A stretch of DNA of 36,614 nt from a virus: the IMG/VR virus record IMGVR_UViG_3300018026_000029; one strand, given 5' to 3'. The translations under genes were made by a program, and so were the position numbers. Shown piece by piece: positions 8,901 to 25,894 of the stretch. Each line of letters begins with the position of its first letter. The first letter of the stretch is position 1. A model generated the notes under the pieces. It was not told where the DNA came from and did not search any database. It was given only the letters and a program-made list of their open reading frames with translations.

Positions 8901-11375
8901 TGGCTGGAGCACAACAACACCGACTACAGCGGGCAGGCCACCGGGTTTATGGAGAGGGGGTTCGGCGACTCCCAGGCCCGCAAGTGGCTCTCCAAGCTCA
9001 ACCTGAAGATAGACGGGGTCCTGGGCGATGACGATGACATCATAGACTTTATCGAGTTCGCAAGCCTGGACGACGAGGAGAGCACCCTCCTTAACGCCTG
9101 GACAGACGCCACGCAGTCCGGGACCGAGATAGACATGAATAGGGACTTCGAGCACGCTGCCAACGACCTCCTGGGCACGGAGTTCCCCTGGGGTACCATG
9201 CTGAGGAGGAAGGGAAAGTACTTCTGGGACGACCCCATCTATGAGTTCATGCCCCTGGCCAAGGCTATCGAGGTAGCAGACAGCGGCGAGGACAGCGCCA
9301 GCAGCTACATGGAGGCCAACGGCAGGGACGACAGCGAGGAGTTCAGGCTGAAGGTTGACGAGCCCTACTACGGATACAACGGCTGGGACGAGTCTGCCGC
9401 CGACGAGCGGATAAGCGAGGGGTTCAGCTTCAAGGAGGAGCCCGAGCCCGAGCCTCCCAAGAAGGCCAGGAGGCCCAGGAAGCCCAGGGCCCCCAAGCCA
9501 AAGAAAGTGATGTCGGCGCTCGGCGACATCGCAGGGAAGTCGGCGCTCGGCGGCATGAAGCTGGCCTACGACTACATGGAGATGTTCCGTGGGCTGCTCC
9601 AGGACTTCCCGGGCCGCAAGGAGACGATAGACGGGGAGATAGCCTGGTGCAAGCGGGTCCTCAAGAAGAGGGACCGCATCACCTGGTGGCTGAGATGGTT
9701 CAGGCTCTTCGAGTACCATGGCATACGCCACAACCCCATGTACTACTGGAGCAAGTACTCCACCACCGAGGTAGAGGAGCAGCTCCCGCAGAACATCACC
9801 CCCGCTATCCGAGAGAGGCTGGCCGCCCTTTCCAGGAAGTACGACAAGGCCTACACGGACGAGATGCACAGGCTGGGCTGGACCGACTTCCGGGGGGGGC
9901 ACTACCCCGACTCCACCAGGCATACGGTAGAGCACTACCTGTCCCTGCCCGTCCCGGAGATACAGGGCCTCGTCTGGGAGAGGCAGCAGCCCTACGAGCT
10001 GTTCATGCTCCTGATGGGCCTGGAGGAGAAGTGGAAGGAGAGGACCAAGGGGGTGGTCGCCCCCCACGAGGGGGACAAGCCGGTCCTGACCTTCGGCGGC
10101 GGGTGGGCATGGTGGCTGCTGGACAGAGGATACTGCGAGGACGAGGCAAGGGCCATGGGGCACTGCGGCAATGTCGCCGGGCAGTACGATGACGACCAGC
10201 GCATCCTCAGCCTGCGCCAGTCGGTGAGGAGGGGCAGCGAGGAGTTCTACGAGCCGCACCTCACCTTCATCCTGCATACCGGGGACAACTCCCTGGGGGA
10301 GATGAAGGGGAAGGGCAATGCCAAGCCCACGGCAAGGTACCACCCCTACATCGTCAAGCTCCTGGAGAGCGGCCTTGTCGATAGGGTAAGGGGCGGAGGC
10401 TACCTTCCCGAGCACAACTTCAGCATGACGGACCTCCCGCAGGCGGAGCAGGACAGGCTGGTGGCCCTGAAGCCCTCCCTTATGTCCTTCGCCTACCGCC
10501 TGGGCAAGGAGGGGATTACCAAGGGGCTGCTCTCCGACCTGTCCAGGGTGCTGTCCCCGATGGAGGAGGGAAAGCCCTATCCCGTCAAGGACTGGTACAT
10601 GCCCAAGCGCCGTGGCTTTCTCATCAACTCCTACACGCTCAAGGAGTTCACAGAGGAGTTCGGGGACGAGGAAAGCCAGGATGCGGCCGATGTCCTGGAG
10701 GGCCGTACCGCGATATCCACCGGCATCGGGGGAGGGGAGGGGTACTGGGCGGGGTGGGGGGGCACAGGGGGAGTGGACCCCCTTGAGGACACCCTGTCGG
10801 CCATAGGCATGACGACCCTTATGATGGCGGAGAAGTACTACAGGGGGCTCTCCAAGGAGCTGCTGCCGGACACCCACCTTGTCTGCACCTATGACCAGGC
10901 CCGGCGCACGTCCACGGGGCCGGTGGCCGGAATCCTCAGCTTCATATCCCAGAACAGGCTCCTGGCGGAGTCCAACAGCATCACCGAGGCATGGAAGAGG
11001 GGCAGGAACGCCGGGATAAAGGCCAGCATGCTCAAGGAGCTTGACAGTGCCCTGGACTCCATCCTGGACCGCCGCCTGGAGGACGGCACCATCTTCTACC
11101 GCCTCGACCCCGCAAGGTGGAACTCCGACATCGAGCACATCCTGCCCCTGGAGGAGGCCGTGGCGATAGCCGACCAGGGGCAGACCTTCGAGGATTTCTT
11201 CGAGGGGTGGGACCAGAGCGTCTGGACCCCCGTCATAGAGTTCGAGGTCCCCCCGCAGGGGTGGCCGGGGTGGGACGCCCAGGCGGCAGAGCTTGCCCTG
11301 AGGGAGCATTACTCCTCCGGGCAGGAGGAAGAAGGCAAGAAGCCTAAGCCTAGGGGGAGGAGGAAGGCCAGGTAA
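5907..11375 (+). CDS. 1822-aa giant protein carrying copies 2, 3 and 4 of the WAWW/MGHCGN module. Each copy has a putative papain/transglutaminase-like Cys-His-Asp core. Linker regions of unknown function separate the copies.
   Basis: Three reiterations of the blocks 'YDYMEMFRG..DFPG', 'KRDRITWWLRW', 'GWAWWLL.RGYC.EEA.AMGHCGNV', 'RILSLR', 'EPHLTFIL', 'LGEMKGKGN.KP', 'YHPYI', 'GGGYLPE.NF'. The ATG follows the upstream TAG directly, with GGAAGGG 4 nt upstream. The TAA stop overlaps the next ATG (TAATG). Confidence 0.75.
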   Translation: MEKLSYDYMEMFRGILSDFPGQLEHLRREVKWAKTLRKQDRITWFLRWLRIAVYDGIALTLHGDSDPARRELSSKYARLMAAEMQRIGWSDRDMLYISLHSAKDSIVHFLGIPSPAIQNLVWGRQTPAQLLGSFEEAENDWKGADSDRALAPHEDDQVALRFPNGWAWWLLGRGYCPEEAKAMGHCGNVAGRDLPGQRILSLRRPVKGPGGREAWEPHLTFILHIAHKALGEMKGRGNEKPAARYHPYIAALLESPVVEEIWGGGYLPENNFSMADLPRDVQEGLVQKKPALMTFRMRLAKEGAQGPSEELVRDITWKLSMGADDWSPRLRAFRIGTWKSAIDFAGQFGTEETRQVIQLALDGEGIPTSSDMGEDEYVLEALRALSPDNLKRVVDYTRWTDPKALEWWAKNRGNPDTPEGIAQMIGRMDLPNIRTNLYSCWYRGMKNGTVFQLLHACCNEIEKLNPVTPASTELAWGDPSPRAVQTYTRSPDRLLLATPLWETVPLEFAAAVADDEEKDPREMPYRYEEWSGLELKAPPDGWGDFSKRTVNEEARFFFHTGDGIPEQLASLDIAKVAYDYMEMFRGFLADFPRFQPTVTNTISWCKRVLRKRDRITWWLRQMRLFWYNLVADKASAWRYAPATNWPATEVPADNTAMIALADKYQALFDREVRSLGPLGLADRSNYLDLGMFANSNQSTMEHLLSLPVPEIQNLVWERQTKQELFRTLLNYETKWKEESKGVLRPRPGDRPVITFGDGWAWWLLDRGYCEEEARAMGHCGNVNGQNRPYERILSLRKSVRRGGTEYYEPHLTFILDTRDSSLGEMKGKGNNKPAPQYHPYILRLLESDIVSKVKGGGYLPEHNFRLGDLSEEQREELAQRKPSMAAFYIRLKREGPSPALIADIGSALQVGGWDPDLQGYVIRQWENMSSLAEDIGNDTAKWIAKVVGGGEFNRHDSPDFEYGDRSEAMKMALGACSDKTLDLVVRCLAYKYPTNLVEWLEHNNTDYSGQATGFMERGFGDSQARKWLSKLNLKIDGVLGDDDDIIDFIEFASLDDEESTLLNAWTDATQSGTEIDMNRDFEHAANDLLGTEFPWGTMLRRKGKYFWDDPIYEFMPLAKAIEVADSGEDSASSYMEANGRDDSEEFRLKVDEPYYGYNGWDESAADERISEGFSFKEEPEPEPPKKARRPRKPRAPKPKKVMSALGDIAGKSALGGMKLAYDYMEMFRGLLQDFPGRKETIDGEIAWCKRVLKKRDRITWWLRWFRLFEYHGIRHNPMYYWSKYSTTEVEEQLPQNITPAIRERLAALSRKYDKAYTDEMHRLGWTDFRGGHYPDSTRHTVEHYLSLPVPEIQGLVWERQQPYELFMLLMGLEEKWKERTKGVVAPHEGDKPVLTFGGGWAWWLLDRGYCEDEARAMGHCGNVAGQYDDDQRILSLRQSVRRGSEEFYEPHLTFILHTGDNSLGEMKGKGNAKPTARYHPYIVKLLESGLVDRVRGGGYLPEHNFSMTDLPQAEQDRLVALKPSLMSFAYRLGKEGITKGLLSDLSRVLSPMEEGKPYPVKDWYMPKRRGFLINSYTLKEFTEEFGDEESQDAADVLEGRTAISTGIGGGEGYWAGWGGTGGVDPLEDTLSAIGMTTLMMAEKYYRGLSKELLPDTHLVCTYDQARRTSTGPVAGILSFISQNRLLAESNSITEAWKRGRNAGIKASMLKELDSALDSILDRRLEDGTIFYRLDPARWNSDIEHILPLEEAVAIADQGQTFEDFFEGWDQSVWTPVIEFEVPPQGWPGWDAQAAELALREHYSSGQEEEGKKPKPRGRRKAR
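5919..6740 (+). repeat. Protein-level tandem module, copy 2 of 4.
   Basis: 'LSYDYMEMFRGILSDFPG ... NGWAWWLLGRGYCPEEAKAMGHCGNVAGRD ... RILSLRRPV ... EPHLTFILHIAHKALGEMKGRGNEKPAARYHPYI ... GGGYLPENNFSMADLP'. Confidence 0.6.
7633..8520 (+). repeat. Protein-level tandem module, copy 3 of 4.
   Basis: 'VAYDYMEMFRGFLADFP ... DGWAWWLLDRGYCEEEARAMGHCGNVNGQ ... RILSLRKSV ... EPHLTFILDTRDSSLGEMKGKGNNKPAPQYHPYI ... GGGYLPEHNFRLGDLS'. Confidence 0.6.
9562..10450 (+). repeat. Protein-level tandem module, copy 4 of 4.
   Basis: 'LAYDYMEMFRGLLQDFPG ... GGWAWWLLDRGYCEDEARAMGHCGNVAGQY ... RILSLRQSV ... EPHLTFILHTGDNSLGEMKGKGNAKPTARYHPYI ... GGGYLPEHNFSMTDLP'. Confidence 0.6.
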
Positions 11376-14300
11376 TGGCACAGGACCTAACAGCCATCAG
11401 CACGCCCGGCACGACCACCCAGGGCCCCGCGTTCAAGGCATGGTTCCGGAACTCCGTGGTGAGGAACCCGGACGGCAGCCCGAGGCCTGTCTACCATGGA
11501 AGCACGCACAGCTTCGAGGCCTTCAGCCTGAAGCCCGGCAACCCCGAGAACTGGTACGGCAAGGCGCTCTACTTCACCGACAGCCCCGAGGACGTGGGGA
11601 GGAACTACGCCACCCCCGACTCGCCGGACCTCAGGGCCCGCATCGACAAGCGCACCGAGCAGCTCATGGACAGGCTGGTGGACGAGCTGGAGCAGGAGCT
11701 TGGCGAGGCGCTGAACTGGAACGACCCCCGCAAGGATAGGCTCTTCCAGGACGCCAAGTCCCAGGCCACCAAGGAGCTTATGGGCCCTGGTGCCATATCC
11801 TACAAGCTGTACCTGCGCATCGAGCGGCCGGTAGTTATCAGGCAGGGCGGCGGCACCTACTTCGAGATAGACTACAACGAGAGGACCGGGAGGGAGACCG
11901 GCTCGGGCATGCGCCTGTACAGGGCGGTGATGAAGGCGGCAGGGCAGCTCAACCTCCCGAACAGCGACGAGATATGGCGGCAGTCGGTATCGGCAGACGA
12001 GGGGATGACGGAGGGCTTTACCGCCCAGCAGTTCGACGAGAACCTCCGCCACTCCGATGCCATGATGGAGGCACGGGACTGGGACGCCACCAACGAGGGC
12101 GAGTTCCTCTCCCTTGTCTACCGCCTGGCCGGATACGACGGCATCATCATGGAGGACGCCGGGGCCACCTTCCACAACATGGGCATCCCCCCCGGCACCA
12201 GGCACTATATCATCTGGAACCCCCGCCAGGCCAAGTCCGCCATTGGCAACACGGGCACGTGGAGCACCCGCACCCCCAGGCTGACGGCAGGCTGGGAGGA
12301 GGACGAGGGGGACTACGGGGTAGAGGACTACCCCCAGTGCCTCGGGGACTACGAGTTCAGGACGACATGCGTGTCCGAGGGCACCGGGGAGCACATCCAG
12401 GAGATGCTGGACAATGCCAAGGACTGCGGCTACAGCGAGGTAAAGAGGCACTGCGAGGGGCTGAGGCCGTGGGAGAAGGAGAACGGCTACGCCCCGGACG
12501 GCAGCCGTAAGGGGCTTACCCTGCGGCACGACTGGGCCGTGAGGTACGGCAGGGGCACCTACAGGAGGATGCCCTGCTACTTTGTCGTGTGGAGCGGCAT
12601 CGAGCATGTCTGGACGAGGAAGGGTGCCGGGGGGCAGGAAGGCTGGGAGGACTGGGCAGGGCGGACGTCAAGCAAGGGTGCTGGGAAGTCTGCCGGGAAG
12701 CCAGGCAAGGCAGGCCTCCTGTACCACGGCACCACGAAGGCCAACCTCCCGTCCATCATGTCCGAGGGTCTCAAGCCCACGGTGGGGTGCTATGCCGAGC
12801 TATGGCATGGCAGGGACCATAACGACACGAGCAAGTCCAACAACCTGGCCCCCGTGGTGTTTGCCGCCCCCAGGGAGCACCTCGACGACTGCCTGCTGGC
12901 CATCTTCGCTGCCCTCAGCAAGGACTTCCCCAGGACCTCCACGGAGCAGTTCTTCGACAATGCCGTCCTCCTGGAGCTTCCCGCCGACCAGTTCACAAGG
13001 AACAGGTGGAAGCGCCCGCCGAGAAATATGAAGCATGTGGAGTCGAGGGACTACTACAGCACCAGCCCTGTCAGGCCTATCCGGGCGATAACAGGGGAGG
13101 AGCTGCGGGGGTTCGCAGGGTATGCCTACCAGAGCGCCCGCCAGGAGTGGTTCGGGGCATACGACCCGGAGAGCCCTGGGCGCAGGCTCGCGGCGGGGAA
13201 GGAATGGCCCCCCTGGATTGGGGTGGACCTGGACGGCACGCTCGCCGAGGAGCAGAGCCCGTTCGACCCGCTGACCATCGGCAGGCCAGTCCCGGAGATG
13301 GTGAGGAAGGTCAGGCAGGCATTGGAGGACGGCGTGGAGGTACGGGTCTTCACCGCCCGGCTTGCAGACAAGGGGCTCAGGGACAGGATTAAGCAGGCCA
13401 TCAGGGACTATACCAGGGAGCACGTCGGCAGGGAGCTGGACAGCACCAACGAGAAGGACCCTGGCCTCAGGGAGATATGGGACGACAAGGCCAGGAGGGT
13501 GAGGAAGGACGAGGGCACCTTCGCCCTGCGGGGCACCGAGCGCCAGCCCTCCCGGGCCGACAGGTACCTGCGCGAGATGTGGAGCCCCGGCGACGGCGCT
13601 TGGTTCGAGTACCACTGCTGGGAAGACCCCAAGTCCTGCGATGCCAACCTGTGGTACCATTCGCACCAGAGGGTCACCGTGCTCGGCAAGGCGGACGCGG
13701 ACGGCTGGCACAAGGGCTGGGATGGCAGCATGATGAAGGACCGTGCGGAGGCGGGTGCCCCGAGGGCGTATACGGTGAGATTCCAGGACGGGTACGAACG
13801 CACCGCCGGGGAAGACGAGCTGATGACCAGCCGGAGGGGATTCTACCGCCCCGACCCGCCAAGGCCGCCCAAGGCGTTCGCCCTGCGGGGGAGCATTATC
13901 GTCGAGGAGCCCCTCTACCACGTCACCTTCAGGAAGAACCTGAGGAGAATCCTCAGGGAGGGGCTCCGTGGCGACCAGGAGCCTAACTGGCCCTTCGACT
14001 CGTCCCCCGGCAACGTGTACCTGATGACCAGGGACGGGCTGGACTTCTGGATGGACAGGTACGAGGACCTGCTCCGCGAGATGGGGAGCAGGTCAAAGCT
14101 GGTGGTTCTGGAGGTATCCCCCAAGGGGCTTATGTTCCAGGAGGATATACAGGGCACCGAGGACTCGGGGACAGAGGCATACCGTACCGGCTTCGTCCCT
14201 CCGGGGAACATACATGCCAACTGGCGGAGGACTGCCTCGCTTGGCAAGGCGGCCTTCAGGAGGCGTGCCCCCCTCTACCATGTGACCTTCTCGAAGAGCG

Positions 14301-14596
14301 TCCCGGCCATCCTGCGGGATGGCCTGGTGCCGAAGACATACCCCAAGCTCCCCCCCAGCCAGTGGGAGAAAGGGGTATACCTTACCAGCAAGGAGGGCAT
14401 ACCGTTCTGGGAGAACATCCTGCGGGATGACATGAAGTGGGGGGGGTTCCACGACCAGCTCTCCGTCCTGGAGGTCTCGCCTGAGGGGCTGGAGCTGGAG
14501 TACGACCGGCAGGGGACAGGGGACTCTGGCGCGAAGGCGTACATTACCCCAAGGGTCCCGCCAGAGAATATCTCCGTCCTGCGGGGGCCTGTCTAG
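11375..14596 (+). CDS. 1073-aa protein: N-terminal H-Y-E-class (PARP/diphtheria-toxin-like) ADP-ribosyltransferase domain, one HGT-type Tpt1/KptA-like domain, a HAD-superfamily phosphatase domain, and two tandem HVT-type Tpt1/KptA C-lobe-like domains.
   Basis: ART domain: 'VYHGSTHSFEAF' (H41), 'WYGKALYFTDS' (Y61/Y66), 'TYFEIDYNE' (E164). The H–Y–E spacing matches PARP and DT catalytic cores. Tpt1-like blocks 'LLYHGTTKANLPSIMSEGLKP...VVF..VLLELP', 'LYHVTFRKNLRRILREGL...NVYLMT...KLVVLEVSPKGL...VPPGNI' and 'LYHVTFSKSVPAILRDGL...GVYLTS...LSVLEVSPEGL...VPPENI' align to KptA 'LYHGT...GL...HYVHLS...PVILTVKA...VWLT'. HAD motif I: 'WIGVDLDGTLAEE'. HAD motif II: 'VRVFTAR'. Confidence 0.75.
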   Translation: MAQDLTAISTPGTTTQGPAFKAWFRNSVVRNPDGSPRPVYHGSTHSFEAFSLKPGNPENWYGKALYFTDSPEDVGRNYATPDSPDLRARIDKRTEQLMDRLVDELEQELGEALNWNDPRKDRLFQDAKSQATKELMGPGAISYKLYLRIERPVVIRQGGGTYFEIDYNERTGRETGSGMRLYRAVMKAAGQLNLPNSDEIWRQSVSADEGMTEGFTAQQFDENLRHSDAMMEARDWDATNEGEFLSLVYRLAGYDGIIMEDAGATFHNMGIPPGTRHYIIWNPRQAKSAIGNTGTWSTRTPRLTAGWEEDEGDYGVEDYPQCLGDYEFRTTCVSEGTGEHIQEMLDNAKDCGYSEVKRHCEGLRPWEKENGYAPDGSRKGLTLRHDWAVRYGRGTYRRMPCYFVVWSGIEHVWTRKGAGGQEGWEDWAGRTSSKGAGKSAGKPGKAGLLYHGTTKANLPSIMSEGLKPTVGCYAELWHGRDHNDTSKSNNLAPVVFAAPREHLDDCLLAIFAALSKDFPRTSTEQFFDNAVLLELPADQFTRNRWKRPPRNMKHVESRDYYSTSPVRPIRAITGEELRGFAGYAYQSARQEWFGAYDPESPGRRLAAGKEWPPWIGVDLDGTLAEEQSPFDPLTIGRPVPEMVRKVRQALEDGVEVRVFTARLADKGLRDRIKQAIRDYTREHVGRELDSTNEKDPGLREIWDDKARRVRKDEGTFALRGTERQPSRADRYLREMWSPGDGAWFEYHCWEDPKSCDANLWYHSHQRVTVLGKADADGWHKGWDGSMMKDRAEAGAPRAYTVRFQDGYERTAGEDELMTSRRGFYRPDPPRPPKAFALRGSIIVEEPLYHVTFRKNLRRILREGLRGDQEPNWPFDSSPGNVYLMTRDGLDFWMDRYEDLLREMGSRSKLVVLEVSPKGLMFQEDIQGTEDSGTEAYRTGFVPPGNIHANWRRTASLGKAAFRRRAPLYHVTFSKSVPAILRDGLVPKTYPKLPPSQWEKGVYLTSKEGIPFWENILRDDMKWGGFHDQLSVLEVSPEGLELEYDRQGTGDSGAKAYITPRVPPENISVLRGPV

Positions 14597-14618
14597 CCGT
14601 TCCCTCTAATAGAGACAC

Positions 14619-17600
14619 ATGGCGATAGCGGACAAGTTCGACCTGGGCTTCGTGGGGAGGCTGATGCGCTCCCGCAACGGCACCGTTGTCGGCACGCTCG
14701 GCGACCTGCTGAAGAGCCCCAGGGCGAGGGACCTCTACAAGGAGGCCCTGGGCGTGCCCGTCATGGTCCTGGACAGGCCCGTGCAGGGGGGCAAGTTCGT
14801 GGACAGCCCCGACCCCAACCTCAGGTTCTTCGGGGCCTGCGGCTCCCTCCGTGGCAAGGCATGCATATTCGTCAACCCCCGCTGGGGGGAGGAGGAGACC
14901 ATAAGGACCCTCCTGGAGGAGGGGGCGCACGCCCTGCGCAAGCTGAAGGGCAGGCCAGCGACGAAGCAGGACATCACGGCCCTTACCTCGGAGAACATCG
15001 GGGAGATGCACGACAGCCTGCCGGAGGAGGTGTCCGCCAAGCAGATGGCGGAGTATGTCCTGAAGACAGCCGCCCAGCTTCCCTCCGTGGCCTTCCGCCA
15101 GGTGTGGCATATCGGCAGCATGGACCCCGAGGACAAGGGGAAGGATAGCCTGGAGGGGGCGGGGCTCAGCATATCCACCCACCCCGAGGAATGGCAGCAG
15201 ATAGCCGAGCTGGGCGAGGGCCCGGTCTGGGAGCTTACGAGGAAGGGCAACAGGTTCCTTGACTTCCACCGCCTCACCAAGGCGCAGCTCGGTGCCATGG
15301 CCGACTGGGGGGCGCAGCAGGGCCTCATAGAGAGGCGGCCCGCCTGGCAGGTCAGGTGGTGGGACAGCGAGGACAACGGGTTCAGGTACGCGGAGACCGA
15401 GACCGAGGAGGAGGCGAAGGAGGAGGCCGGGGCGGTCGGGGGCAAGGTAAGGGCGCTCAGCAGCATAGCCTACCCGACTGACAGGCTGAGGAAGGCCACC
15501 AGGAACCCCCGTGCCAACTCCGTGGTGGCCATGGACCTGCTGGCGACGGTCTATGCCGACAAGGCCCTGGGCTGGGACGGCGTATGGTGGCAGGATACCC
15601 TGGACGTGCCTGGCCTCAGCGCCCCGAGGGGCGTTATCCTCCCCTCCAGGCTGGCAGGGTGGCAGAGGCGGCAGGTAGGCATGGAGGGGATAGAGGACTA
15701 CGGTGCCCCCGGCAGGAGGGTATCCTCGGACAGGAGGTTCATCTGGCAGGGCAGGCATGGCAAGGCCCCGCAGCCCGGCGTCCCCTATTACCATGTCGCC
15801 CCGGCCAGCTACCAGGAGGGCCAGGATATCTACTCCTACGATGCCTACCAGGACGAGTTCGGCGAGGAGCCCGAGTGGAAGTGGGAGGAGGGCCAGATTG
15901 GGGATACCGACAAGGTCTCCCTGCATGACAGCCTGGAGGAGGCAGAGGGCTTCCGGGAGGAGTGGGTCCCCGGTGGCAGGGTCATAGAGGTCGTGTTCCC
16001 CTCCCCGCTGGGGCAGCTAGGCCTGTCCGGAGGGGTGAACGGCGAGGGGTACCCGTTCGTCCGCCATCGTATACCAGGGGGGTTCGTCAGGAAGGTCAGC
16101 AGTGGCCGGAAAACACTGGAGGAGCTTGCCCTGGAGTTCCGTGAGAGGCAGGAGGACTGGTTCGAGTGGCAGGATGACAAGGCGTGCTTCCGGGAACAGT
16201 GCCTTGGCATAGCCAGGGGCCTGGCCAAGTTCCTGACGGAGAACGGCATCCCTGCCGAGCCTTGGCACAGTTACTATTATGACGATGACGGGAAGCCCCA
16301 TAACCACTGGTGGGTCATAGCCGGGGGCAGGGTGGTGGATGTAACGGCCGACCAGTTCCATCCCGAGGACCCCGACAGCTACCGGGTGGTCATAACAAGC
16401 CTGGATGACCCTCACTACAGGCAGAGGAAGGCCAGGCAGGCCGGGACAGAGTCCTCCCCCCAGTCCGTTCCCGCCATGCAGGGGTGGGGCTATGACGAGC
16501 CGTTCCCTGACAGGCACTCGGACTTCTTCGAGCTGGTGGAGAACCCCCACACGGACAGGGGCAGGGAGACCAGGGTGCTGGAGACCGGGGCACCGCCGCC
16601 CGAGGGCGGCGAGGGCAAGCCTGCCAGGGGAGAGCCTGGCCAGGAGGGCACGCTGGTCAGGCCGATGGCGTCCTTCAGGAGCGCCCTCCTGCGCAAGAAG
16701 GCATACAGTATCCTGGCGGTGTTCTGGGTCAAGCTCCAGGGGCGCATCCTGCTGTTCCCCAACAGGTTCCTCAACCATGACCAGATTCTACAGGAGACAG
16801 GCATCCCTGCGGGCGGCCCGGAGTACGACAGGATGCTGCGGGGCAGGGTGTTCATAGACCGGGAGAGGCGGCGGGTGAGGTTCACCCGGCACGGTGGGGG
16901 CTATACCCCCAACGATGTGGTGGAGGAGATTGTCAGCCGCTACCACCTCCAGGACTGGGAGATGGAGGACGAGGGCGAGGCCATGGGCAGGTACGGCTCT
17001 GTCCAGGGCGGGCCCGTGGTCGAGAGGCTCGGCCGTGAGGACATCCCCGAGGCCCTGGAGGTCATCGCCCAGTGCTTCCCCCAGTACGCGGACATCGCCG
17101 ACGTGGTCTCCAGGGACGTCCGGGGGGACTTCAGCCTCTCCTATGGGATGAGGCTGGAGGGCAGGATTATAGGCTGCTACCTCCTGGGCCGCGTGCAGCT
17201 ACCCGAGGAGTACCCCGGCCGCCCCGAGGCACAGGCATACGCAGGTAAGAGGGGCGTGCGGGGGGTGTGCCTGTGCCTGCTGCCCCAGTACCGTGGCAAG
17301 GGGTGGGGGGCAAGGCTTCGGGCCGTCCCGCTCTCCCTGGGGGCGGACTATGTCTGGGGCGAGCATTACAGCAGCCTGGACAACCTCGGCAAGTGGACGA
17401 GCTTCGGACGCAGGCTGCTGTTCGACACGAAGGATGCCAAGGGGCAGCCCTACCATGTTACCGTCATGGACCTGAGGGGGGGGCCGCCGAAGGCCGCCTC
17501 CTCCAGGGACCCCTACCTCTACCATGTAGCGCAGCCGGGCACCCTCGGGAACATAGCGAGGGACGGGCTCCAGGGCGGCATACTGGGCCCGAAGGTGTTC

Positions 17601-20600
17601 CTTACCGAGAGGGCCGGGGTCGGCTTCTGGCGGGGGTACGATGCGTCCGCCCCCGTCCTTCGCATGCGGCGGGACCTGCTGGAGGACCTGGAGCCGGACG
17701 ACTACGGGACACAGGACTCCGGGTCCCCCTGCTACAGCGCCCAGCCCGTGCCCCCCGCCCGCCTGGAGTTCCGGGTGGACACCCCCCAGGGCGAGGCCTG
17801 GAGGCCCGTAAGGTACGCGCTCGCCAAGGCCGCCTCCCAGGGCATACCCTCCTTCAGGGGCCTCGTGCGGGAGCTTGGGGGCATGAAGTACCTCCTGTCC
17901 GAGGTCGATATCGACGAGTTCGACCTGGAGGGGTCGGGGAAGAAGCCCGAGGAGTACATCAGGGGCAAGTTCAACGAGGTGAGGTCGTTCTTCGCCGGGC
18001 TCAGGTACCCCATACCTGTCTACCGGGCAATAAGCGGGGACCGCAGCGAGCTGAGGACAAAGGGCTTCGGCACCTCGTGGTCGATGAGCGAGGGAGGGAT
18101 GGGGGAGCAGGGGGCATACCCCTACGAGGGGAACCCGTCCAGCTACCAGGTCTACTCCTCCCACGTGTCGCCCAGGGACATAAACTGGACCAGCACCCTC
18201 CTGCTGGCCATGGGGAGATGGTGGGACAGGGAGAAGGAGATAGTGGTGCGCAACGGGGCACGGCTCAGGGTCGGCGACGATGACGGCAGGATGTTCGAGG
18301 TGACGGCGTCCTTCGGGAAGACCGCCCTCAATGTCCCCAAGCTGGTCCAGGACTTCGGCGCGAAGCTCGTGGAGAGGTACAAGGCCGACTTCCCGGACGA
18401 CACAAGGGAAATCGACCCGGCGGCCCTAATCAACTCCCTTGTCCCGCTCGACCCTACCGGCAACCATGAGTACGTGTCATGGATAGTGGGCAACTATGCC
18501 CGTGGGGAGCTTGGCGAGTACGATGATATCGAGGCCACCGTCATCCCGCTCATCGAGCGCTACCATGCCCTGAAGAAGACCAGGAACCTACAGCCCCAGG
18601 ACACGAACATCCAGAGGCTACGCGGGAAGGCCGCCCTGGAGGCACTGCTGGCAAGGTACGCCGAGGTAGAGGCGGAGTCGAGGCGGCAGAGGGCCGTCAG
18701 CAGGGAGCAGGCGTTCTTCAGGAAGGGGGAGGCCGAGCTGGTGCATGACGACCCGGAGATGAAGGTCGTCATCCCCGAGACCTGCGAGGCGGCCAAGTTC
18801 TTCGGCGTCAACACGAGGTGGTGTACGTCGGCCGAGAGCAACAACGCCTTCCAGCAGTACCACGAGGAGGGGCCGCTCTACATCGTCCTGCTCAAGAGGG
18901 AGAACAAGAGGTTCCAGTTCCACTTCCAGACGGCGCAGTTCACGGACGAGGCGGACAGGCCGCTCGACATCGAGGAGTGGCTGGTGGAGCACCCCATGGT
19001 GGCCAGGCTGCTCGGGCCCCTGGCCGAGAAGGCCGATTCCGAGTGCGACGAGTGCGCTGGCCATGGGAGCAGCAGGTGCGGGGAGTGCGACGGCGAGGGG
19101 GCCGTGGAGTGCGTGGAGTGCGGCGGCAGCGGGCACGAGCGCTGCAACGACTGCCAGGGGAGGGGAAGGGTCCCCTGCGGCACATGCAACGGCGTAGGCA
19201 TGGCGGGCGGGGGGGAGTGCCCGGCGTGCCACGGCGACCAGTACGAGCAGTGCGGCTCCTGCCATGGGACGGGCAACAAGAAGTGCGAGGAGTGCGACGG
19301 GCGAGGGTCCCATGCATGCGGGAGCTGCGAGAACGGGAGCATAACGTGCGACAAGTGCGGGGGCACGGGCAAGAACCCCGAGATGAACCAGTTCCTCGAA
19401 GGGTGCCAGAGGGCCCTCGCAGGGCCGCTGTCCGTCCCTGCCCTCCGCAACCTCAGGAAGAAGAAGTGGCCAGCGCTGAAGAAGAGGGTCAAGGACTGGA
19501 TAGAGCCCAGGAGGACCCCCGTACACGTCGGCCCCAGGGGCATGGCGTTCCTGCAATGGCTGGAGGGGGTGAAGAGGAGGCTCAAGGGCAAGAGGGGCAG
19601 CAAGACGGCAGCGGAGGGGAGGTGCCAGCACTGCGGGGGCAGCCGCATAGGCATGGCCCTGCACTCTCCCAGCGCTGACACCTACTGGTGCATGGACTGC
19701 AACAGGAACACCGACGTCAGGCGGGAGGGGGTAAGCTGGAGCCTGCGGGACGCTGTATCGAGGTGGGGCGGCAAGACGGCGGCCGGCGAGTGGTGGAGGA
19801 GGTGGAGGAAGACCGAGGTTCTCCCCAAGGGCACGGTCCTCTACCATGGGACGGCACAGGAGTTCCCAGGCATGGACCTTAGCCTGCCTGCCTGGTTCAG
19901 CACCTCCAGGTCGGTGGCGGAGCACTTCCAGTCATGGCACGGGGAGGACGAGGGGAAGCACCGCCTCCTGATGTTCAGGGCGACCAGGCCCATCCGCCTG
20001 CCCCGCATAGATGGCAGGGAGGACCTGGAGAGGATGGAGGACATGTTCGGCCTCCAGACCTCCTACGGGGCCGAGGACATAGTGGACAGCCTCTCCCAGA
20101 GCGGGCTGCCCGGCTGGGTTATCCCCCATAACTACCCGGACGGGGACGACATCCTGCTGGCGGAGACGGACAGCATCGAGTTCACGGGGCAGGAGCCCGA
20201 GGCCGCGGACGAGGAGAGCGGGGAGACGGACGAGTTCGGCCACAGCCTGGAGCTGCCCGGCAAGTGGACGAGGAACGGGGACGGCAACTGGGTCTACCAT
20301 ATGACCCCCGAGGAGATAGCCGAGCGGGAGCGCATCGTGGGGAAGAAGGGTGCAGAGGCTAGTGAGGACCCCCCTGTCACCAAGGAGCTGCTCACCACCC
20401 GCAACCCCAAGGCGATGAGGCCCTACCGCCCCAGCCTGGTCACCACCGAGGGCAACCCCAAGATGGAGAAGGGCCTGTCCAGGGGATACCTCACGGGCGT
20501 CATGCACCTCATGCCGGCCGACAAGAGCGGGTACGGGAACGTCTGCCCCTTCAGCTCGGCGGAGTGCCGCCATCACTGCCTGAACACGGCCGGCAACTGG

Positions 20601-21053
20601 GTGCCGCACAAGCTCCAGTCCCGCATCTACAAGACCAAGCTATACTTCACGGACCGCAAGAGGTTCCTGGAGGAGCTGAGGAGGAGCATCGCCAGGCTGG
20701 CCAGGAAGGCGGAGGAGCAGGGGCTCCTGCCCGCCGTGCGCCTGAACGGCACCAGCGACATCCCCAGCCTCGGCCTGATGATGTCCAGGGAGTTCCCGGA
20801 CATTACCTTCTATGACTATACCCGCATACCCAAGCCCTGGCAGAGGATGAGGGGGAACTACCACCTTACCTTCTCCCGCTCTGGAGATGATGATAAGGAA
20901 GTAGAGGAGGCCTTGGACCATGGGGTTAGCGTAGCCGTGGTCTTCGATACCAAGCCCAATCTTCCGTTACCAGGGGAATGGCCTAAGGGCAAAAGGCAAG
21001 GCAAGAGGGAAGGGGACAGAGACCGGTTTTGTGCTAAAGAACCCCCTGCTTAA
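14619..21053 (+). CDS. 2144-aa giant multidomain protein. In order: transglutaminase-like Cys protease core, GNAT acetyltransferase, Tpt1/ART-fold domain, a 10-unit DnaJ-type CxxCxGxG zinc-finger array, a CxxC zinc ribbon, a second Tpt1-like (LYHGT) domain, and a Cys/His-containing C-terminal region. The last ~40 codons run into a low-GC island.
   Basis: TGase-like core: 'REQCLGIARGLA' and 'HNHWWVIAGGRVVDVTAD'. GNAT motif A: 'LLPQYRGKGWGARL'. Tpt1-like: 'DPYLYHVAQPGTLGNIARDGL...VFLTER...DSGSP...VPPARLEF'. Zinc-finger array: 'CDECAGHG CGECDGEG CVECGGSG CNDCQGRG CGTCNGVG CPACHGDQ CGSCHGTG CEECDGRG CGSCENGS CDKCGGTG'. Zinc ribbon: 'CQHCGG...CMDCN'. Second Tpt1-like: 'VLYHGTAQEF...AWFSTSRSVAEHF...HRLLMFRATRPIRL' (cf. 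KptA 'FLYHGTASRF...HYVHLS...PVILTVKA'). Confidence 0.75.
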   Translation: MAIADKFDLGFVGRLMRSRNGTVVGTLGDLLKSPRARDLYKEALGVPVMVLDRPVQGGKFVDSPDPNLRFFGACGSLRGKACIFVNPRWGEEETIRTLLEEGAHALRKLKGRPATKQDITALTSENIGEMHDSLPEEVSAKQMAEYVLKTAAQLPSVAFRQVWHIGSMDPEDKGKDSLEGAGLSISTHPEEWQQIAELGEGPVWELTRKGNRFLDFHRLTKAQLGAMADWGAQQGLIERRPAWQVRWWDSEDNGFRYAETETEEEAKEEAGAVGGKVRALSSIAYPTDRLRKATRNPRANSVVAMDLLATVYADKALGWDGVWWQDTLDVPGLSAPRGVILPSRLAGWQRRQVGMEGIEDYGAPGRRVSSDRRFIWQGRHGKAPQPGVPYYHVAPASYQEGQDIYSYDAYQDEFGEEPEWKWEEGQIGDTDKVSLHDSLEEAEGFREEWVPGGRVIEVVFPSPLGQLGLSGGVNGEGYPFVRHRIPGGFVRKVSSGRKTLEELALEFRERQEDWFEWQDDKACFREQCLGIARGLAKFLTENGIPAEPWHSYYYDDDGKPHNHWWVIAGGRVVDVTADQFHPEDPDSYRVVITSLDDPHYRQRKARQAGTESSPQSVPAMQGWGYDEPFPDRHSDFFELVENPHTDRGRETRVLETGAPPPEGGEGKPARGEPGQEGTLVRPMASFRSALLRKKAYSILAVFWVKLQGRILLFPNRFLNHDQILQETGIPAGGPEYDRMLRGRVFIDRERRRVRFTRHGGGYTPNDVVEEIVSRYHLQDWEMEDEGEAMGRYGSVQGGPVVERLGREDIPEALEVIAQCFPQYADIADVVSRDVRGDFSLSYGMRLEGRIIGCYLLGRVQLPEEYPGRPEAQAYAGKRGVRGVCLCLLPQYRGKGWGARLRAVPLSLGADYVWGEHYSSLDNLGKWTSFGRRLLFDTKDAKGQPYHVTVMDLRGGPPKAASSRDPYLYHVAQPGTLGNIARDGLQGGILGPKVFLTERAGVGFWRGYDASAPVLRMRRDLLEDLEPDDYGTQDSGSPCYSAQPVPPARLEFRVDTPQGEAWRPVRYALAKAASQGIPSFRGLVRELGGMKYLLSEVDIDEFDLEGSGKKPEEYIRGKFNEVRSFFAGLRYPIPVYRAISGDRSELRTKGFGTSWSMSEGGMGEQGAYPYEGNPSSYQVYSSHVSPRDINWTSTLLLAMGRWWDREKEIVVRNGARLRVGDDDGRMFEVTASFGKTALNVPKLVQDFGAKLVERYKADFPDDTREIDPAALINSLVPLDPTGNHEYVSWIVGNYARGELGEYDDIEATVIPLIERYHALKKTRNLQPQDTNIQRLRGKAALEALLARYAEVEAESRRQRAVSREQAFFRKGEAELVHDDPEMKVVIPETCEAAKFFGVNTRWCTSAESNNAFQQYHEEGPLYIVLLKRENKRFQFHFQTAQFTDEADRPLDIEEWLVEHPMVARLLGPLAEKADSECDECAGHGSSRCGECDGEGAVECVECGGSGHERCNDCQGRGRVPCGTCNGVGMAGGGECPACHGDQYEQCGSCHGTGNKKCEECDGRGSHACGSCENGSITCDKCGGTGKNPEMNQFLEGCQRALAGPLSVPALRNLRKKKWPALKKRVKDWIEPRRTPVHVGPRGMAFLQWLEGVKRRLKGKRGSKTAAEGRCQHCGGSRIGMALHSPSADTYWCMDCNRNTDVRREGVSWSLRDAVSRWGGKTAAGEWWRRWRKTEVLPKGTVLYHGTAQEFPGMDLSLPAWFSTSRSVAEHFQSWHGEDEGKHRLLMFRATRPIRLPRIDGREDLERMEDMFGLQTSYGAEDIVDSLSQSGLPGWVIPHNYPDGDDILLAETDSIEFTGQEPEAADEESGETDEFGHSLELPGKWTRNGDGNWVYHMTPEEIAERERIVGKKGAEASEDPPVTKELLTTRNPKAMRPYRPSLVTTEGNPKMEKGLSRGYLTGVMHLMPADKSGYGNVCPFSSAECRHHCLNTAGNWVPHKLQSRIYKTKLYFTDRKRFLEELRRSIARLARKAEEQGLLPAVRLNGTSDIPSLGLMMSREFPDITFYDYTRIPKPWQRMRGNYHLTFSRSGDDDKEVEEALDHGVSVAVVFDTKPNLPLPGEWPKGKRQGKREGDRDRFCAKEPPA

Positions 21054-21055
21054 CC

Positions 21056-21451
21056 CTAGGCAAGGTGCCTATGTGCCAGTGCTTCTAGCATCCTCTCAAA
21101 GTCCCCGTCAGGAAACGCCCCCCGTGCCCGGTTGTATATCCAGCATGTAAGTCTTACATTTTCCGGGGAATAATCCCCTGTCTGGGATATGCGGTCTAAG
21201 GAAGGGCTGAACGAGTTGCTCCTGCTTCCCTTCCCCCCGTTTATATGGAGTTCCAGGGGTATCCCAGTTACCTCGCATACGCCTTTCTTGAGCTTCTCCT
21301 CAATCCAGGCCTGGGTGATAGAGCACTTCACCTTTGCCTTTGCCGCCCGCTTTCTGGCATTGCAAAGAAGGAAGGATGCACGCCCATTTGTGGTCGTATA
21401 GTATTTGGAGAACTTCTTGTAGTTTAAGACCCTTTGCTTTTCTGTCGGCAT
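21056..21451 (-). CDS. Free-standing HNH-family (homing-type) endonuclease in a low-GC island.
   Basis: '...LHINGGKGSRSNSFSPSLDRISQTGDYSPENVRLTCWIYN...' resembles the phage HNH_3/AP2-type core 'H...SLDRID..GY...N'. Local GC is clearly lower than the flanks. The ATG is preceded by AGGGGG. The stop lies 2 nt from the convergent giant-gene stop. Confidence 0.55.
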   Translation of the reverse strand: MPTEKQRVLNYKKFSKYYTTTNGRASFLLCNARKRAAKAKVKCSITQAWIEEKLKKGVCEVTGIPLELHINGGKGSRSNSFSPSLDRISQTGDYSPENVRLTCWIYNRARGAFPDGDFERMLEALAHRHLA

Positions 21452-21486
21452 ATCTACCCCCTATTAGGAGATAGATAGTTTAGAGA

Positions 21487-22536
21487 CTATACCTTCCTCC
21501 GGTACCCCCCCATGCACACGAGCTGCACGGCGTCCGGGTTGACGGCGAAGCCAGCCTTCTCAGTGAGGGTAAAGCCCATATGGTCAGGAGGATAGTCGGC
21601 TGACAGCACGCTCATCCTCGCCTCGTCGGCCACGTACCCCGCGTGGACTGCATCGTCTACCCCGTCCACGGCCCTCGTGGCCCTGGTATGCCCGGTGACG
21701 TACATCCACCCCTGGGGCACAGACCGGCTCTGGTAGAACGCGGTACCGTCAATATACCCCAGCAGCCCCGTCTTGAGCGTTACCCTGTCGTGGTTGCGGT
21801 AGAGCCTGTCGTCCCTCAGCCCCAGCAGCTCCGTGGCATCGTGCGGGTGGGCGAAGATGTACTGGGCCTCCTTGACGCCCCGCCCCGAGAGCCTCTCCCT
21901 TGCCTCCTCCAGGAAGGAGGGGCTGAACGGGACGATGTCCCTGGCCACAGAGTCCATCAGGGAGAACATCCACATGTCCTCGGCATCGGTCACCTCCCCC
22001 TTTGCCAGGTTGAGGCAGCGTGCGACCAGGTCGAACCGGCGCTCTGTCACGTGCGAGGCGGGGAACCCGACCTCCGATGTAATCTCGAAGGCCGGGATGT
22101 CAGTGCCGTCCCCCGTGCTGCGGAGCTTGTCGTAATGCACGCCGTTATAGAGGGGCAGGACGCTGTGCAGGCCCAGGCGGCCAAGGCTGGAGACGTGGCT
22201 CCCGTCCACCACGCAGAAGGCCTTGCGGACCAGGCTCTTGTAGTCCCTGCGGCGTCTCAGGGACGGTCCCATGGCCTCCGCCAGCCTCCGGCGGCCATCG
22301 GCGTTCTTGAGGAAGCTGTAGATAAGGTCCTCCTGCTCGGGGGTCGTATGGGGGATGCCCCCAAGGTATACCTGCTCCCTGTCAAGCCAGAAGACGTCCC
22401 CCTGGGCAGTATCCCCCGTATCCTCCTGGGCAAGCGCCACGGCCAGGCTGCTGGCCCTAAGCTGCCGTGCCCCTAGCAGTGCTGCCGTCCCCCCCAGCAG
22501 CGACCGGAAGAACCCCCTGCGCACCATCGTCCCCAT
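21487..22536 (-). CDS. 349-aa protein with a twin-arginine (Tat)-type signal peptide. Function unknown.
   Basis: N-terminus 'MGTMVRRGFFRSLLGGTAALLGARQLRA' has an RR-x-FF motif, a hydrophobic h-region and an AxA-like site. The remainder has no motif I recognise. Confidence 0.5.
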   Translation of the reverse strand: MGTMVRRGFFRSLLGGTAALLGARQLRASSLAVALAQEDTGDTAQGDVFWLDREQVYLGGIPHTTPEQEDLIYSFLKNADGRRRLAEAMGPSLRRRRDYKSLVRKAFCVVDGSHVSSLGRLGLHSVLPLYNGVHYDKLRSTGDGTDIPAFEITSEVGFPASHVTERRFDLVARCLNLAKGEVTDAEDMWMFSLMDSVARDIVPFSPSFLEEARERLSGRGVKEAQYIFAHPHDATELLGLRDDRLYRNHDRVTLKTGLLGYIDGTAFYQSRSVPQGWMYVTGHTRATRAVDGVDDAVHAGYVADEARMSVLSADYPPDHMGFTLTEKAGFAVNPDAVQLVCMGGYRRKV

Positions 22537-23890: not shown

Positions 23891-23898
23891 CAGCCTCC

Positions 23899-24294: not shown

Positions 24295-24449
24295 GGCGTT
24301 CTCCTTGAGGTGATAAGCTCCACCGAGTCGTTGGCGACATCGAAGGCGATGGCCACCACCGGCTCGTAGTCCCCTGTGTCCGGGTCGAATGCCCTTACCT
24401 CCAGGCCAGGGTAGTACGACAGCATCCTGACTATGTCCGATGCCGTCAT
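24276..24449 (-). CDS. Unlisted 57-aa ORF ('MTASDIVRMLSYYPGLEVRAFDPDTGDYEPVVAIAFDVANDSVELITSRRTPCSEKP') that fills the gap between the CCA gene and the membrane-protein gene.
   Basis: I translated it by hand from the minus strand. Its ATG overlaps the CCA-gene TGA (ATGA). GGAGG lies 4 nt upstream. Composition is balanced. It is too short for the ORF track. Confidence 0.35.
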   Translation of the reverse strand: MTASDIVRMLSYYPGLEVRAFDPDTGDYEPVVAIAFDVANDSVELITSRRTPCSEKP

Positions 24450-25894
24450 CCCCCCTCCCCTGTAGGGGGGCTAGGAAGGATGGGCCGGACGAGCTGGCCA
24501 GGGAAGACATACTCCACCCCTTTCCTCAGCCTCTCCATCGCCTCCAGGGCCTCCTCGCGGGTGGATATCGTGCCCTCTAGCTGCATGTCCTCGATGTCCC
24601 CCAGGATTAGCTTGAAGCCCCTTCCCGGCTCCATCCCCATGGCTATCAGGTCGTCCCCCGTGGCCAGCCTCTCCGGGCGTATCTCCTCGGGGGTCAGCGA
24701 CATGCAGTAGTCCAGCATCTCGGTGTACTGCGCTGCCGCGTGGTCCCTGTAGTCCTTGCCCAGCTCCCCCTCCCCGTCCTCCTCGTCCTCCCTGCGCAGG
24801 AGGATGTCCTGCCTGGCCAGGACGACGCCGTTCCTGGCCCCCGGCGTGCGCATCAGCTTCTTGAGGCGGTAGCGGCTGTGGTTCTTGGGGTAGTAGTAGA
24901 AGTTCCCGTTGAGGAGCAGGTCCATGCGCACGTCCAGCGCCCCGCAGATGGCCCTGGCATGCTCCGAGGACAGCTTCAGGACATCCCTGCACAGGTGCTC
25001 GCTGTCCGTCTCGCAGGGGTCGGACCCGGCGAGCAGCATGGCCATCCCTAGGTCCTGGTCCGTGGTGGGGAAGGCTGCCAGCCTGTGCATGGCGTTGGCC
25101 AGGGAGGGCTTGACCGCCTCCCTGAAGGGCAGGTATTCGAGCAGCCCCGATGCCGCCAGGGCGGCCAGCCCGCCCGCAGCATTGGGGGACGCCACGAGCC
25201 TGAGCAGCTCCGCCGTGACGCGCTCCACCGACACCCTCCTGATAAGGGGGGCGTTCCTCCTGATTGCGCCCAGGGTGCCCTGCTCTATCTGGAACCTGAG
25301 CTGGGCAGCGAACCTGCACGCCCGCAGCATCCTGAGGGCGTCCTCCATGAACCTCTGCGTCGGGTCGCCGATGCAGCGGACGACCCTGTCCCTGATATCC
25401 CTGAGCCCGCCCACATAGTCCACGACGAGGCTGTCCCCGCCCGGCGCTGGCTGGATGGCAAAGGAGGTGCTCTGCGGCCCGCTGCCTGGGTGCCCCTCCG
25501 CCAGGGTCGTGCCGCCGTACGAGATAAGCAGCCCGTTCATGGTGAAGTCCCGCCTGGAGACGTCCTGCTCGGCGGTGTCGCTGTAGAAGACAATCTCGGG
25601 ATGGCGGCCGTCCTCGTACCTGCCGTCCGACCTGAAGGTGGCCACCTCGGTGTTCACCCCGCCGATGACCACGGTGACCACGCCGAAGGCCGCCCCGATG
25701 GGGACGGTCTTCTCGAAGAGGCCTATGACCTGCTCCGGGCGGGCATTGGTCGTGACATCGTAGTCCTTGGGCTCCCTGCCCAGGACGAGGTCGCGCACGC
25801 ACCCGCCGACGAGGTAGGCCTCGAAGCCTGCCTCGCTGAGCGCCCTGATTACCTGCTCGGCCGCCTGCCTTGCCTCAGTAGCCATAGCCGACAT
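24446..25894 (-). CDS. cca: tRNA nucleotidyltransferase of the CCA-adding enzyme / poly(A) polymerase family, class II, with a C-terminal tRNA-binding region.
   Basis: Head-domain motifs: 'AYLVGGCVRDLVLGREPKDYDVTT' (GGxVRD...DxD), 'ATFRSDGRYEDGRHP', 'RRDFTMNGLL'. The protein is about 480 aa. Confidence 0.85.
   Translation of the reverse strand: MSAMATEARQAAEQVIRALSEAGFEAYLVGGCVRDLVLGREPKDYDVTTNARPEQVIGLFEKTVPIGAAFGVVTVVIGGVNTEVATFRSDGRYEDGRHPEIVFYSDTAEQDVSRRDFTMNGLLISYGGTTLAEGHPGSGPQSTSFAIQPAPGGDSLVVDYVGGLRDIRDRVVRCIGDPTQRFMEDALRMLRACRFAAQLRFQIEQGTLGAIRRNAPLIRRVSVERVTAELLRLVASPNAAGGLAALAASGLLEYLPFREAVKPSLANAMHRLAAFPTTDQDLGMAMLLAGSDPCETDSEHLCRDVLKLSSEHARAICGALDVRMDLLLNGNFYYYPKNHSRYRLKKLMRTPGARNGVVLARQDILLRREDEEDGEGELGKDYRDHAAAQYTEMLDYCMSLTPEEIRPERLATGDDLIAMGMEPGRGFKLILGDIEDMQLEGTISTREEALEAMERLRKGVEYVFPGQLVRPILPSPPTGEGG

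Follow-up and report, generated by a model that had tools for sequence, protein, structure and literature searches.

Polyvalent proteins, encoded by phages or conjugative elements, are giant multidomain proteins that carry the ART-PolyVal domain and multiple copies of ADP-ribosyltransferase (ART) domains (Iyer, Burroughs, Anand, de Souza, Aravind 2017; PF18760). ARTs are the commonest modifying domain of this class, with 1-12 copies, and the head-packaged Alt protein of phage T4 serves as the model for their proposed action; the ART-PolyVal clade is related to protein-modifying ARTs (PMC5512222). A second described set, the RNA-repair components of jumbo phages, includes CCA-adding enzymes, HNH-fused Rnl2, HAD phosphatases and KptA (PMC7824862). 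We analyzed a stretch of 36,614 nucleotides (65% G+C) from the IMG/VR virus record IMGVR_UViG_3300018026_000029, hereafter the window, and ~55 kb of the element was examined in all, including ~18 kb past the right end of the window. An earlier reading of the letters (the original prediction) had joined Tpt1-like lobes, a HAD 3'-phosphatase-like domain and a CCA-adding enzyme at 11375-25894 into one RNA-repair theme; this span runs from the start of the giant gene P1 to the start of a nucleotidyltransferase gene. All three were present where that reading had placed them, well beyond chance. We found that P1 and the adjacent giant protein P2 are members of a five-gene polyvalent array, of the class of Iyer et al. 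2017, and that the RNA-repair theme is real but is housed in separate small genes, apart from the giant proteins.

The giant proteins P1 and P2 and the polyvalent class

The window derives from a large tailed phage of soil or peat metagenomes, probably of jumbo size. This phage is a distant relative of the Acidobacteria jumbo phage Tunturi_5, a 309-kb myovirus (PMC11924767), which was the best cultured relative. Gene calls in the window were identified via the G+C content of third codon positions (GC3). The + strand at 1310-21053 contained an array of five co-oriented giant genes, which were tightly packed. The features of P1 and P2, with protein positions in amino acids (aa), were as follows.

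11375-14596, + strand, P1, 1073-aa polyvalent protein (Pfam, PHROG and NCBIfam matches; GC3 0.88)
11414-12292, + strand, P1 aa 14-306, ART-PolyVal, the putative H-Y-D type ADP-ribosyltransferase of polyvalent proteins (PF18760, 52.6 bits; cut-off 31.2 bits)
12704-13129, + strand, P1 aa 444-585, D2, ART-fold domain of a Pfam-unannotated family (motifs LLYHGT...GLKP...VESRDYYS)
13181-13549, + strand, P1 aa 603-725, compact, cap-less HAD phosphatase module (DLDGT, TAR, K, DD)
13550-13894, + strand, P1 aa 726-840, conserved domain with no family match
13901-14587, + strand, P1 aa 843-952 and 963-1071, tandem mini-ARTs D3 and D4, ~105 aa each (PLYHVT...VYLT...VLEV...VPP)
14619-21053, + strand, P2, 2144-aa polyvalent protein (GP88; mini-ART hidden Markov model, HMM)
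17508-17771, + strand, P2 aa 964-1051, mini-ART (local HMM, i-E 5.6e-9, outside the training set)
P2 aa ~1472-1531, + strand, Cys-rich CXXCXGXG zinc-finger region (DnaJ-type finger, E 0.02)
P2 aa ~1737, + strand, weak ART-like 'VLYHGT..WFSTS' motif (tentative)
20448-20972, + strand, P2 aa 1944-2118, GP88 domain at the C-terminus (PF17338, 1.3e-29)

As mapped by BLAST to homologues, the order of P1 was ART-PolyVal, an unknown segment, the D2 ART, HAD, a further unknown segment and the two mini-ARTs, giving a total of four ART-fold domains from three families (one ART-PolyVal, one D2 and two mini-ARTs). The ART at the C-terminus of Tunturi_5 gp321 and the ART-PolyVal domain of P1 were 40% identical. 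P2 contained at least one mini-ART together with GP88, and its 'VLYHGT..FSTS' segment gave a weak BLAST match to ART-PolyVal (E 0.014), an assignment that is tentative. We also observed that CXXCXGXG-like repeats run long in P2 (aa ~1470-1600). P1 aa 726-840 are common to the proteins P0018, P0019 and P0020, and a segment of an uncultured phage of 595 kb (LR756511) matched them at 55% identity.

Two properties place these proteins in the polyvalent class. Several effector domains, including the hub domain ART-PolyVal, are combined, as P1 contained PF18760, three ARTs and HAD, while P2 contained a mini-ART, zinc fingers and GP88. Additionally, the genes were found in a virion-gene context: a major capsid gene is located 430 bp from the end of P2 and is directly convergent with the array, and the Tunturi_5 homologues are found among head and tail genes.

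The giant-gene arrangement recurs in Tunturi_5. In particular, Tunturi_5 gp273 combines HAD, NUDIX, ART-PolyVal and GNAT domains and adjoins gp272, which contains InPase and GP88 and is homologous to the P2 C-terminus. Tunturi_5 gp321, located between head-tail connector and tail genes, contains SprT, 2H, three ART-PolyVal and GNAT domains; SprT heads this protein, and the array includes a SprT-like + YunG protein. The modules of P1 all recur in large multidomain proteins with ART-PolyVal, ParB_N, GNAT, DUF3990, InPase, NUDIX, lysozyme or GIY-YIG, or in small stand-alone phage proteins.

Compared with the described polyvalent proteins, the array was alike in its giant multidomain proteins with ART-PolyVal and multiple ART copies, in the partners found in relatives (SprT-type metallopeptidase, GNAT, NUDIX and InPase) and in the location of the loci beside virion genes. 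The differences were that P1 contained two Pfam-less ART families like the Tpt1 C-lobe and a PNKP-like HAD, and that three of the five array members showed few or no recognisable domains. T4 Alt is shared only as the proposed model, in which an ART is delivered with the DNA and modifies host proteins via host NAD+. Alt is a single-domain effector with an R-S-E type ART of another clade, whereas the packaging of P1 and P2 is only predicted. A virion association of P1 and P2 would fit the capsid gene nearby, the structural gene context in Tunturi_5 and the presence of an ART-like domain in a solved cyanophage pre-ejectosome protein.

ART and HAD domains compared with Tpt1 and PNKP

The term Tpt1-like lobes was accurate, with matches at P1 aa 446-472 and 843-952 and at P2 aa 964-1051. 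The P1 segment aa 446-472 gave a local Tpt1/KptA match (Pfam PF01885, E 1.7e-4; NCBIfam NF002013, E 1e-7) and also matched PARP and DUF7002 models; as read from the sequence, the C-terminal repeats of P1 begin with LYH[GV]T...GL, like this segment. Tpt1 chains in the PDB matched P1 at E 0.01, and a profile of 54 D2-domain relatives matched seven distinct Tpt1 PDB sequences (E 1.4e-6 to 3.6e-5) over 31 residues only. Tpt1 was the best structural neighbour of two P1 ART domains. The structural alignment covered 84-85 of the 179 Tpt1 residues, in the C-lobe half only, which is the NAD+-binding ART fold with the HGT motif (LYHGT..NLPSIL..GL).

These matches favour an alternative in which the ART and HAD domains heal RNA ends by removing 2'-phosphates and 3'-phosphates, forming one tRNA-repair toolkit with the CCA enzyme and an Rnl2-type ligase. 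The HMM scores, however, were far under the family cut-offs: PF01885 gave 22.1 bits on P1 (cut-off 26) at model positions 102-123 only, NF002013 gave 31.7 bits against a cut-off of 231, and the HMM matches to Tpt1 spanned 22-31 residues. In Tpt1 structural work, the N-terminal RNA-binding lobe was found to carry three of the four catalytic Arg-His-Arg-Arg residues. This lobe (a winged helix with Arg-His and the second Arg) had no counterpart in the P1 ART domains. D3 and D4 abut, leaving no N-lobe between them, the stand-alone relatives of the ART domains are only 120-180 aa long, and the segment preceding D2 had no confident fold in structure prediction. We considered P1 aa 306-440 ('GLTLRHDW...') as a Tpt1 N-lobe and rejected it, as it had no confident fold and was absent from D2 relatives. 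The C-lobe Arg ahead of the VHLS strand was likewise not conserved, as Tpt1 reads GLKPMKRQYV and the D2 family consensus reads GLePtvGeFv, and D3 and D4 had no conserved Arg at this position.

Because the RNA-binding lobe and the catalytic tetrad are missing, the non-PolyVal ART domains are not RNA 2'-phosphotransferases; their predicted structures are closest to the NAD+-binding C-lobe of Tpt1. The proposal that healing activities are fused into the giant proteins was not supported, since the first ART of P1 is the canonical ART-PolyVal, the other ARTs lack these Tpt1 parts and the modules recur in polyvalent proteins. Unlike Tpt1/KptA, the domains studied here are repeats embedded in giant proteins.

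The nearest viral structure in BFVD was that of a 121-aa protein from phage PaBG, which carries the annotation 'putative RNA 2'-phosphotransferase', and many small uncharacterised phage proteins came next in the list; lobe-only Tpt1-like versions are therefore common in phages. Elsewhere, the D2 and mini-ART families were found as small stand-alone phage proteins or as pieces of polyvalent proteins with NUDIX, GNAT, lysozyme or GIY-YIG partners. In three sampled neighbourhoods of stand-alone mini-ARTs we found unannotated small genes and NUDIX or PARP-like genes, and no ligases or other RNA-repair genes, which also speaks against RNA healing. The two ART families without a Pfam model that resemble the Tpt1 C-lobe are new here.

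The HAD domain was correctly described as 3'-phosphatase-like, as its closest characterised relative is a PNKP-type HAD. The four HAD catalytic motifs (DxDxT, S/T, K and DD) were all present in the P1 module, and in an alignment of 16 HAD-module homologues D23, D25, T27, T65, K99 and D108 were invariant and D109 near-invariant. Three kinds of match favour RNA healing. Pfam HAD_PNKP (PF25109) was the only HAD family recurrently matched by relatives of the module, although weakly (10 of the 16 members, best E 9e-4). The PHROG matches (1238 and 415) included a 'polynucleotide kinase' family at 2.6e-4, and a profile search of the PDB reached the T4 Pnk phosphatase at E 0.08-0.35. Besides these, PHROG gave a 'phosphoheptose isomerase' family, and the PDB profile search gave 1xpj (E 0.001). 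A phmmer search of the HAD segment against the PDB gave nothing useful.

The P1 module has in common with the T4 Pnkp phosphatase and HAD_PNKP a cap-less DxDxT HAD in which motifs I-III are similarly ordered and spaced. It differs in its sub-threshold score (13.4 bits against HAD_PNKP, cut-off 27.6), in a shorter spacing of motifs III-IV and in having no P-loop kinase fused or adjacent, and the missing kinase is a further point against RNA healing. The same module was found at the N-terminus of Tunturi_5 gp273 (i-E 1.6e-45), and elsewhere it was fused to NUDIX, InPase, GNAT and PurD, which again argues against an RNA-end function. The PurD fusion hints at ribose-phosphate-type small-molecule substrates. 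A PNKP-like HAD as a mobile polyvalent module is new here. In the metagenomic proteins P0029-P0032 (~531 aa), the module is located at the C-terminus of phosphoribosylamine-glycine ligase (PurD, PF01071).

The CCA-type nucleotidyltransferase and the RNA ligase

Two genes of the RNA-repair theme were found outside the giant proteins, the second on contig L008, which extends past the window.

24446-25894, - strand, class II tRNA nucleotidyltransferase of the CCA-adding type (PF01743, PF12627)
L008 4145-5116 (window-equivalent ~39531-40502), - strand, HNH + Rnl2-family RNA ligase, ~2.9 kb past the window end

The identification of the first gene as CCA-type was borne out by its head and RNA-binding domains and by CCA models scoring above those for pcnB and poly(A) polymerase (PAP). 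The enzyme (479-482 aa) matched PF01743 (PolyA_pol head; 3e-32, 112 bits) and PF12627 (RNA-binding; 5.5e-15, 55 bits). The motifs expected of class II enzymes (GGxVRD, DxD, RRD, EDxxR and ER) were read in the sequence as GGCVRD, DYDV, RRDFT, EDALRMLRACRF and VERV. The 24446-25894 product is thus a CCA-type nucleotidyltransferase, with CCA specificity predicted from sequence.

It is unlikely that this enzyme is something other than a repair CCA-adding enzyme, namely a poly(A) polymerase, a partial (A- or CC-adding) enzyme or one that only matures phage tRNAs. Its NCBIfam scores were under both curated cut-offs, with 255.5 bits for the CCA model NF009814 (cut-off 290) and 208 bits for pcnB (cut-off 305.65). 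An unusual insertion of ~27-29 aa was present directly after RRDFTMNGL (aa 125-153), and Tunturi_5 carries 43 tRNA genes (PMC11924767), both of which favour such an alternative. On the other side, the enzyme was nearer to CCA-adding enzymes than to PAP both in NCBIfam and in the PDB (6ibp/1miv, 1e-51; E. coli PAP, 1e-36), and its alignment to 6ibp had no gaps over the 114 aa that lead from the head-domain start up to and including the RRDFT motif. Maturation of phage tRNAs was considered; the ~55 kb of the element contained no tRNA genes, and the tRNA genes of a relative, contig L017, all encode CCA. The insertion was shared with the best CCA relative in IMG/VR (contig L046, 47% identical) and was absent from Tunturi_5 gp279, which instead has an HD domain.

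Three phages (the window, Tunturi_5 and L046), whose CCA enzymes are only 41-47% identical, have a CCA gene close to a giant polyvalent gene that is convergent with it. The Tunturi_5 gene, gp279, is located ~3 kb downstream of gp273 on the opposite strand, and the L046 gene is convergent with a 2807-aa open reading frame (ORF; 2860-aa open frame) holding D2 and mini-ART domains. In the window, the CCA gene is upstream of the major capsid gene on the same strand, and the giant genes converge on this capsid/CCA block and are not co-transcribed with it. The adjacency kept in three phages counts in favour of RNA healing. Because the CCA and giant genes are on opposite strands, which counts against it, the adjacency is most simply explained by genome order that has been conserved where two modules meet.

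The original prediction had noted that no ligase or P-loop kinase is visible. This held in the window, where neither RtcB nor, in any frame, a Walker A motif was found; for the ligase it did not hold in the genome. The HNH + Rnl2-type ligase matched PF09414 (3.9e-30, 105.7 bits) and phrog_24030 'RNA ligase' (1.2e-80), had an N-terminal HNH and the motif EKMDGEG (KxDG), and is encoded on the strand of the CCA gene, ~14 kb from it; phmmer against the PDB gave nothing useful for this protein. An extended search for RtcB, Rnl, Pnkp kinase, Hen1 and tRNA genes had been suggested. Apart from this ligase, no RtcB, P-loop kinase/PNK, Hen1 or tRNA genes were found in the window and the ~18 kb beyond. 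In Tunturi_5, the CCA gene is accompanied by RtcB ~10 kb away.

Relatives of the ligase were found on IMG/VR contigs of 300-536 kb, and the one on L017 has eight tRNA genes next to it, of which seven are tRNA-Leu. On the strand of the ligase and CCA genes, we also observed a 183-aa protein with a weak, sub-threshold peptidyl-tRNA hydrolase PTH2 match (E 5e-4; L008 978-1529, window-equivalent ~43.1-43.7 kb).

Compared with the tRNA repair sets of large phages (PMC7824862), the element is alike in encoding, on one strand, both a CCA-type nucleotidyltransferase and a ligase of the Rnl2 family fused to HNH. It differs in that the ~55 kb yielded neither a Pnkp kinase nor RlaP, RtcB or tRNA genes, and in that its CCA enzyme has the lineage-specific insertion after RRDFT and no HD domain. 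A phage RNA-repair toolkit, as first proposed, is consequently retained for the CCA enzyme and the ligase and is unsupported for the giant-protein domains as RNA-healing enzymes.

The ligase also bears on RNA healing by these domains, since an Rnl2-type ligase requires 3'-OH and 5'-P ends, and no other phosphatase or kinase was found in the ~55 kb; the 2H domain of Tunturi_5 gp321 points in the same direction. Weighed against the missing Tpt1 parts, the low scores, the varied HAD fusions and the strand arrangement, we regard RNA healing by the giant proteins as distinctly improbable. Tpt1 can ADP-ribosylate 5'-phosphates. A virion-delivered kit for nucleic-acid ends can also be envisaged, in which Tpt1-like ARTs consisting of the lobe only and a HAD 3'-phosphatase derived from PNKP would target RNA or DNA phosphate ends, be injected with the genome and aid the Rnl2 ligase and CCA enzyme against tRNA-targeting defences from the first seconds of infection; we consider this highly unlikely.

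Proposed action, surroundings and meaning of the array

With moderate confidence, we interpret P1 and P2 as polyvalent NAD+-dependent effectors, probably packaged and ejected, which are accompanied by an independent tRNA-repair set of the CCA and Rnl2 type. P1 and P2, whose genes adjoin the capsid module, would be late products that are packaged along with the DNA and enter the cell by ejection. As in the T4 Alt paradigm, the ART domains would draw on host NAD+ for the ADP-ribosylation of host macromolecules, and the HAD module would process phosphorylated nucleotide-type substrates, like the NUDIX, InPase and 2H modules of relatives. The CCA-adding enzyme and the HNH-Rnl2-type ligase would represent conventional large-phage tRNA-repair equipment in separate genes.

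Several points weigh against this interpretation. The packaging and ejection of P1 and P2 are deduced from gene context and analogy only. The 887-aa and 1822-aa proteins of the array and most of P2 are without detectable domains. Within the mini-ART family, two positions of the H-Y-E triad, Y and E, are variable, and some mini-ART copies may be binding modules instead of enzymes. The P1 domains may also perform RNA- or phosphate-directed chemistry, because the Tpt1 C-lobe and the PNKP phosphatase belong to RNA-end enzymes and gp321 has a 2H phosphoesterase.

A role mainly on small molecules was also considered. The NAD+-related modules would then act on NAD+-derived or nucleotide immune signals and on by-products such as ADPr, ADPr-phosphates and cyclic nucleotides, as an injected counter-defence without ADP-ribosylation of macromolecules. 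Earlier work has put forward such a role for proteins of the polyvalent class and of jumbo phages (PMC5512222, PMC7824862), and it would agree with the NUDIX, InPase, 2H and HAD partners of relatives, with the fusion of HAD to PurD, an enzyme of ribose-5-phosphate metabolites, and with the variable catalytic Y and E of the mini-ARTs. We nevertheless consider it rather unlikely: the kinship of ART-PolyVal is with protein-modifying ARTs (PMC5512222), and the window showed neither a sponge nor an Acb1-like or Macro domain. The surroundings of the array are listed below.

154-900, + strand, Pol-beta-type nucleotidyltransferase fragment
1310-3253, + strand, SprT-like + YunG protein (domain matches SprT-like, YunG)
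3243-5906, + strand, 887-aa protein (ORF, GC3)
5907-11375, + strand, 1822-aa protein (ORF, GC3)
21056-21451, - strand, endonuclease VII-like gene (phrog_3322, 2e-24; phrog_1035 endonuclease VII, 5e-15)
21487-22536, - strand, major capsid protein homologue (tblastn; phrog_2522, 3e-5)
between the capsid gene and the nucleotidyltransferase gene, - strand, small ORFs
28546-29598, - strand, 350-aa protein with a DnaJ-type CXXCXGXG zinc finger
30731-31954, - strand, collagen triple-helix repeat protein (1.3e-13)
34769-36614 and beyond (L008 7446-9878), 810-aa protein with major-vault-protein repeat and shoulder domains (PF17795, PF11978)
L008 6478-6975 (window-equivalent ~37.7-38.2 kb), phage-encoded acyl carrier protein (PP-binding, 2e-15; phrog acyl carrier protein, 8e-24)

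The array genes upstream of P1 had GC3 values of 0.88-0.90, and their stops and starts overlap or abut. Pfam, PHROG and NCBIfam found no domain in the 887-aa and 1822-aa proteins, and phmmer of the latter against the PDB gave nothing useful. The - strand carries the genes from 21056 on, the first being the endonuclease VII-like gene, which is convergent with P2 with the stops 2 bp apart. By tblastn, the capsid gene matched the major head proteins of Tunturi_5 (2e-28) and Bacillus phage G (3e-12). The collagen repeat protein varied in length between strains, with 407 aa in one and 488 aa in L009. Full-length homologues of the vault-domain protein, 41-43% identical, were found in uncultured huge phages of 462-735 kb.

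A near-identity DNA search against phages gave no match, and no copy of the element was found in the IMG/VR collection searched. The element was found identical on many metagenome contigs, with an identical P1 on nine of them. Leftward, all contigs stop ~550 bp beyond the window start, and three independent assemblies (L011/L012/L013) end within 8 bp of each other, inside an ORF of ~484 aa that encodes a nucleotidyltransferase domain of the Pol-beta type (NTP_transf_2, 2e-8; MTPAP-like palm, 4e-5). This shared end may be a repeat or hypervariable boundary. The outermost 10 kb past the right end showed zero Pfam matches.

The architecture and both themes of this locus are already in the literature, and the lineage of soil phages is new. 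A short Tpt1 or PNKP match inside a giant phage protein can mislead as RNA repair, as the fold is common and the enzyme-defining parts are absent. The two Pfam-unannotated ART families and the mobile PNKP-like HAD recur in polyvalent and small phage proteins of soil huge-phage lineages, and they provide concrete targets for learning what injected phage ARTs modify. Because Tunturi_5 is cultured and has the same modules, the questions of packaging and targets are experimentally tractable.

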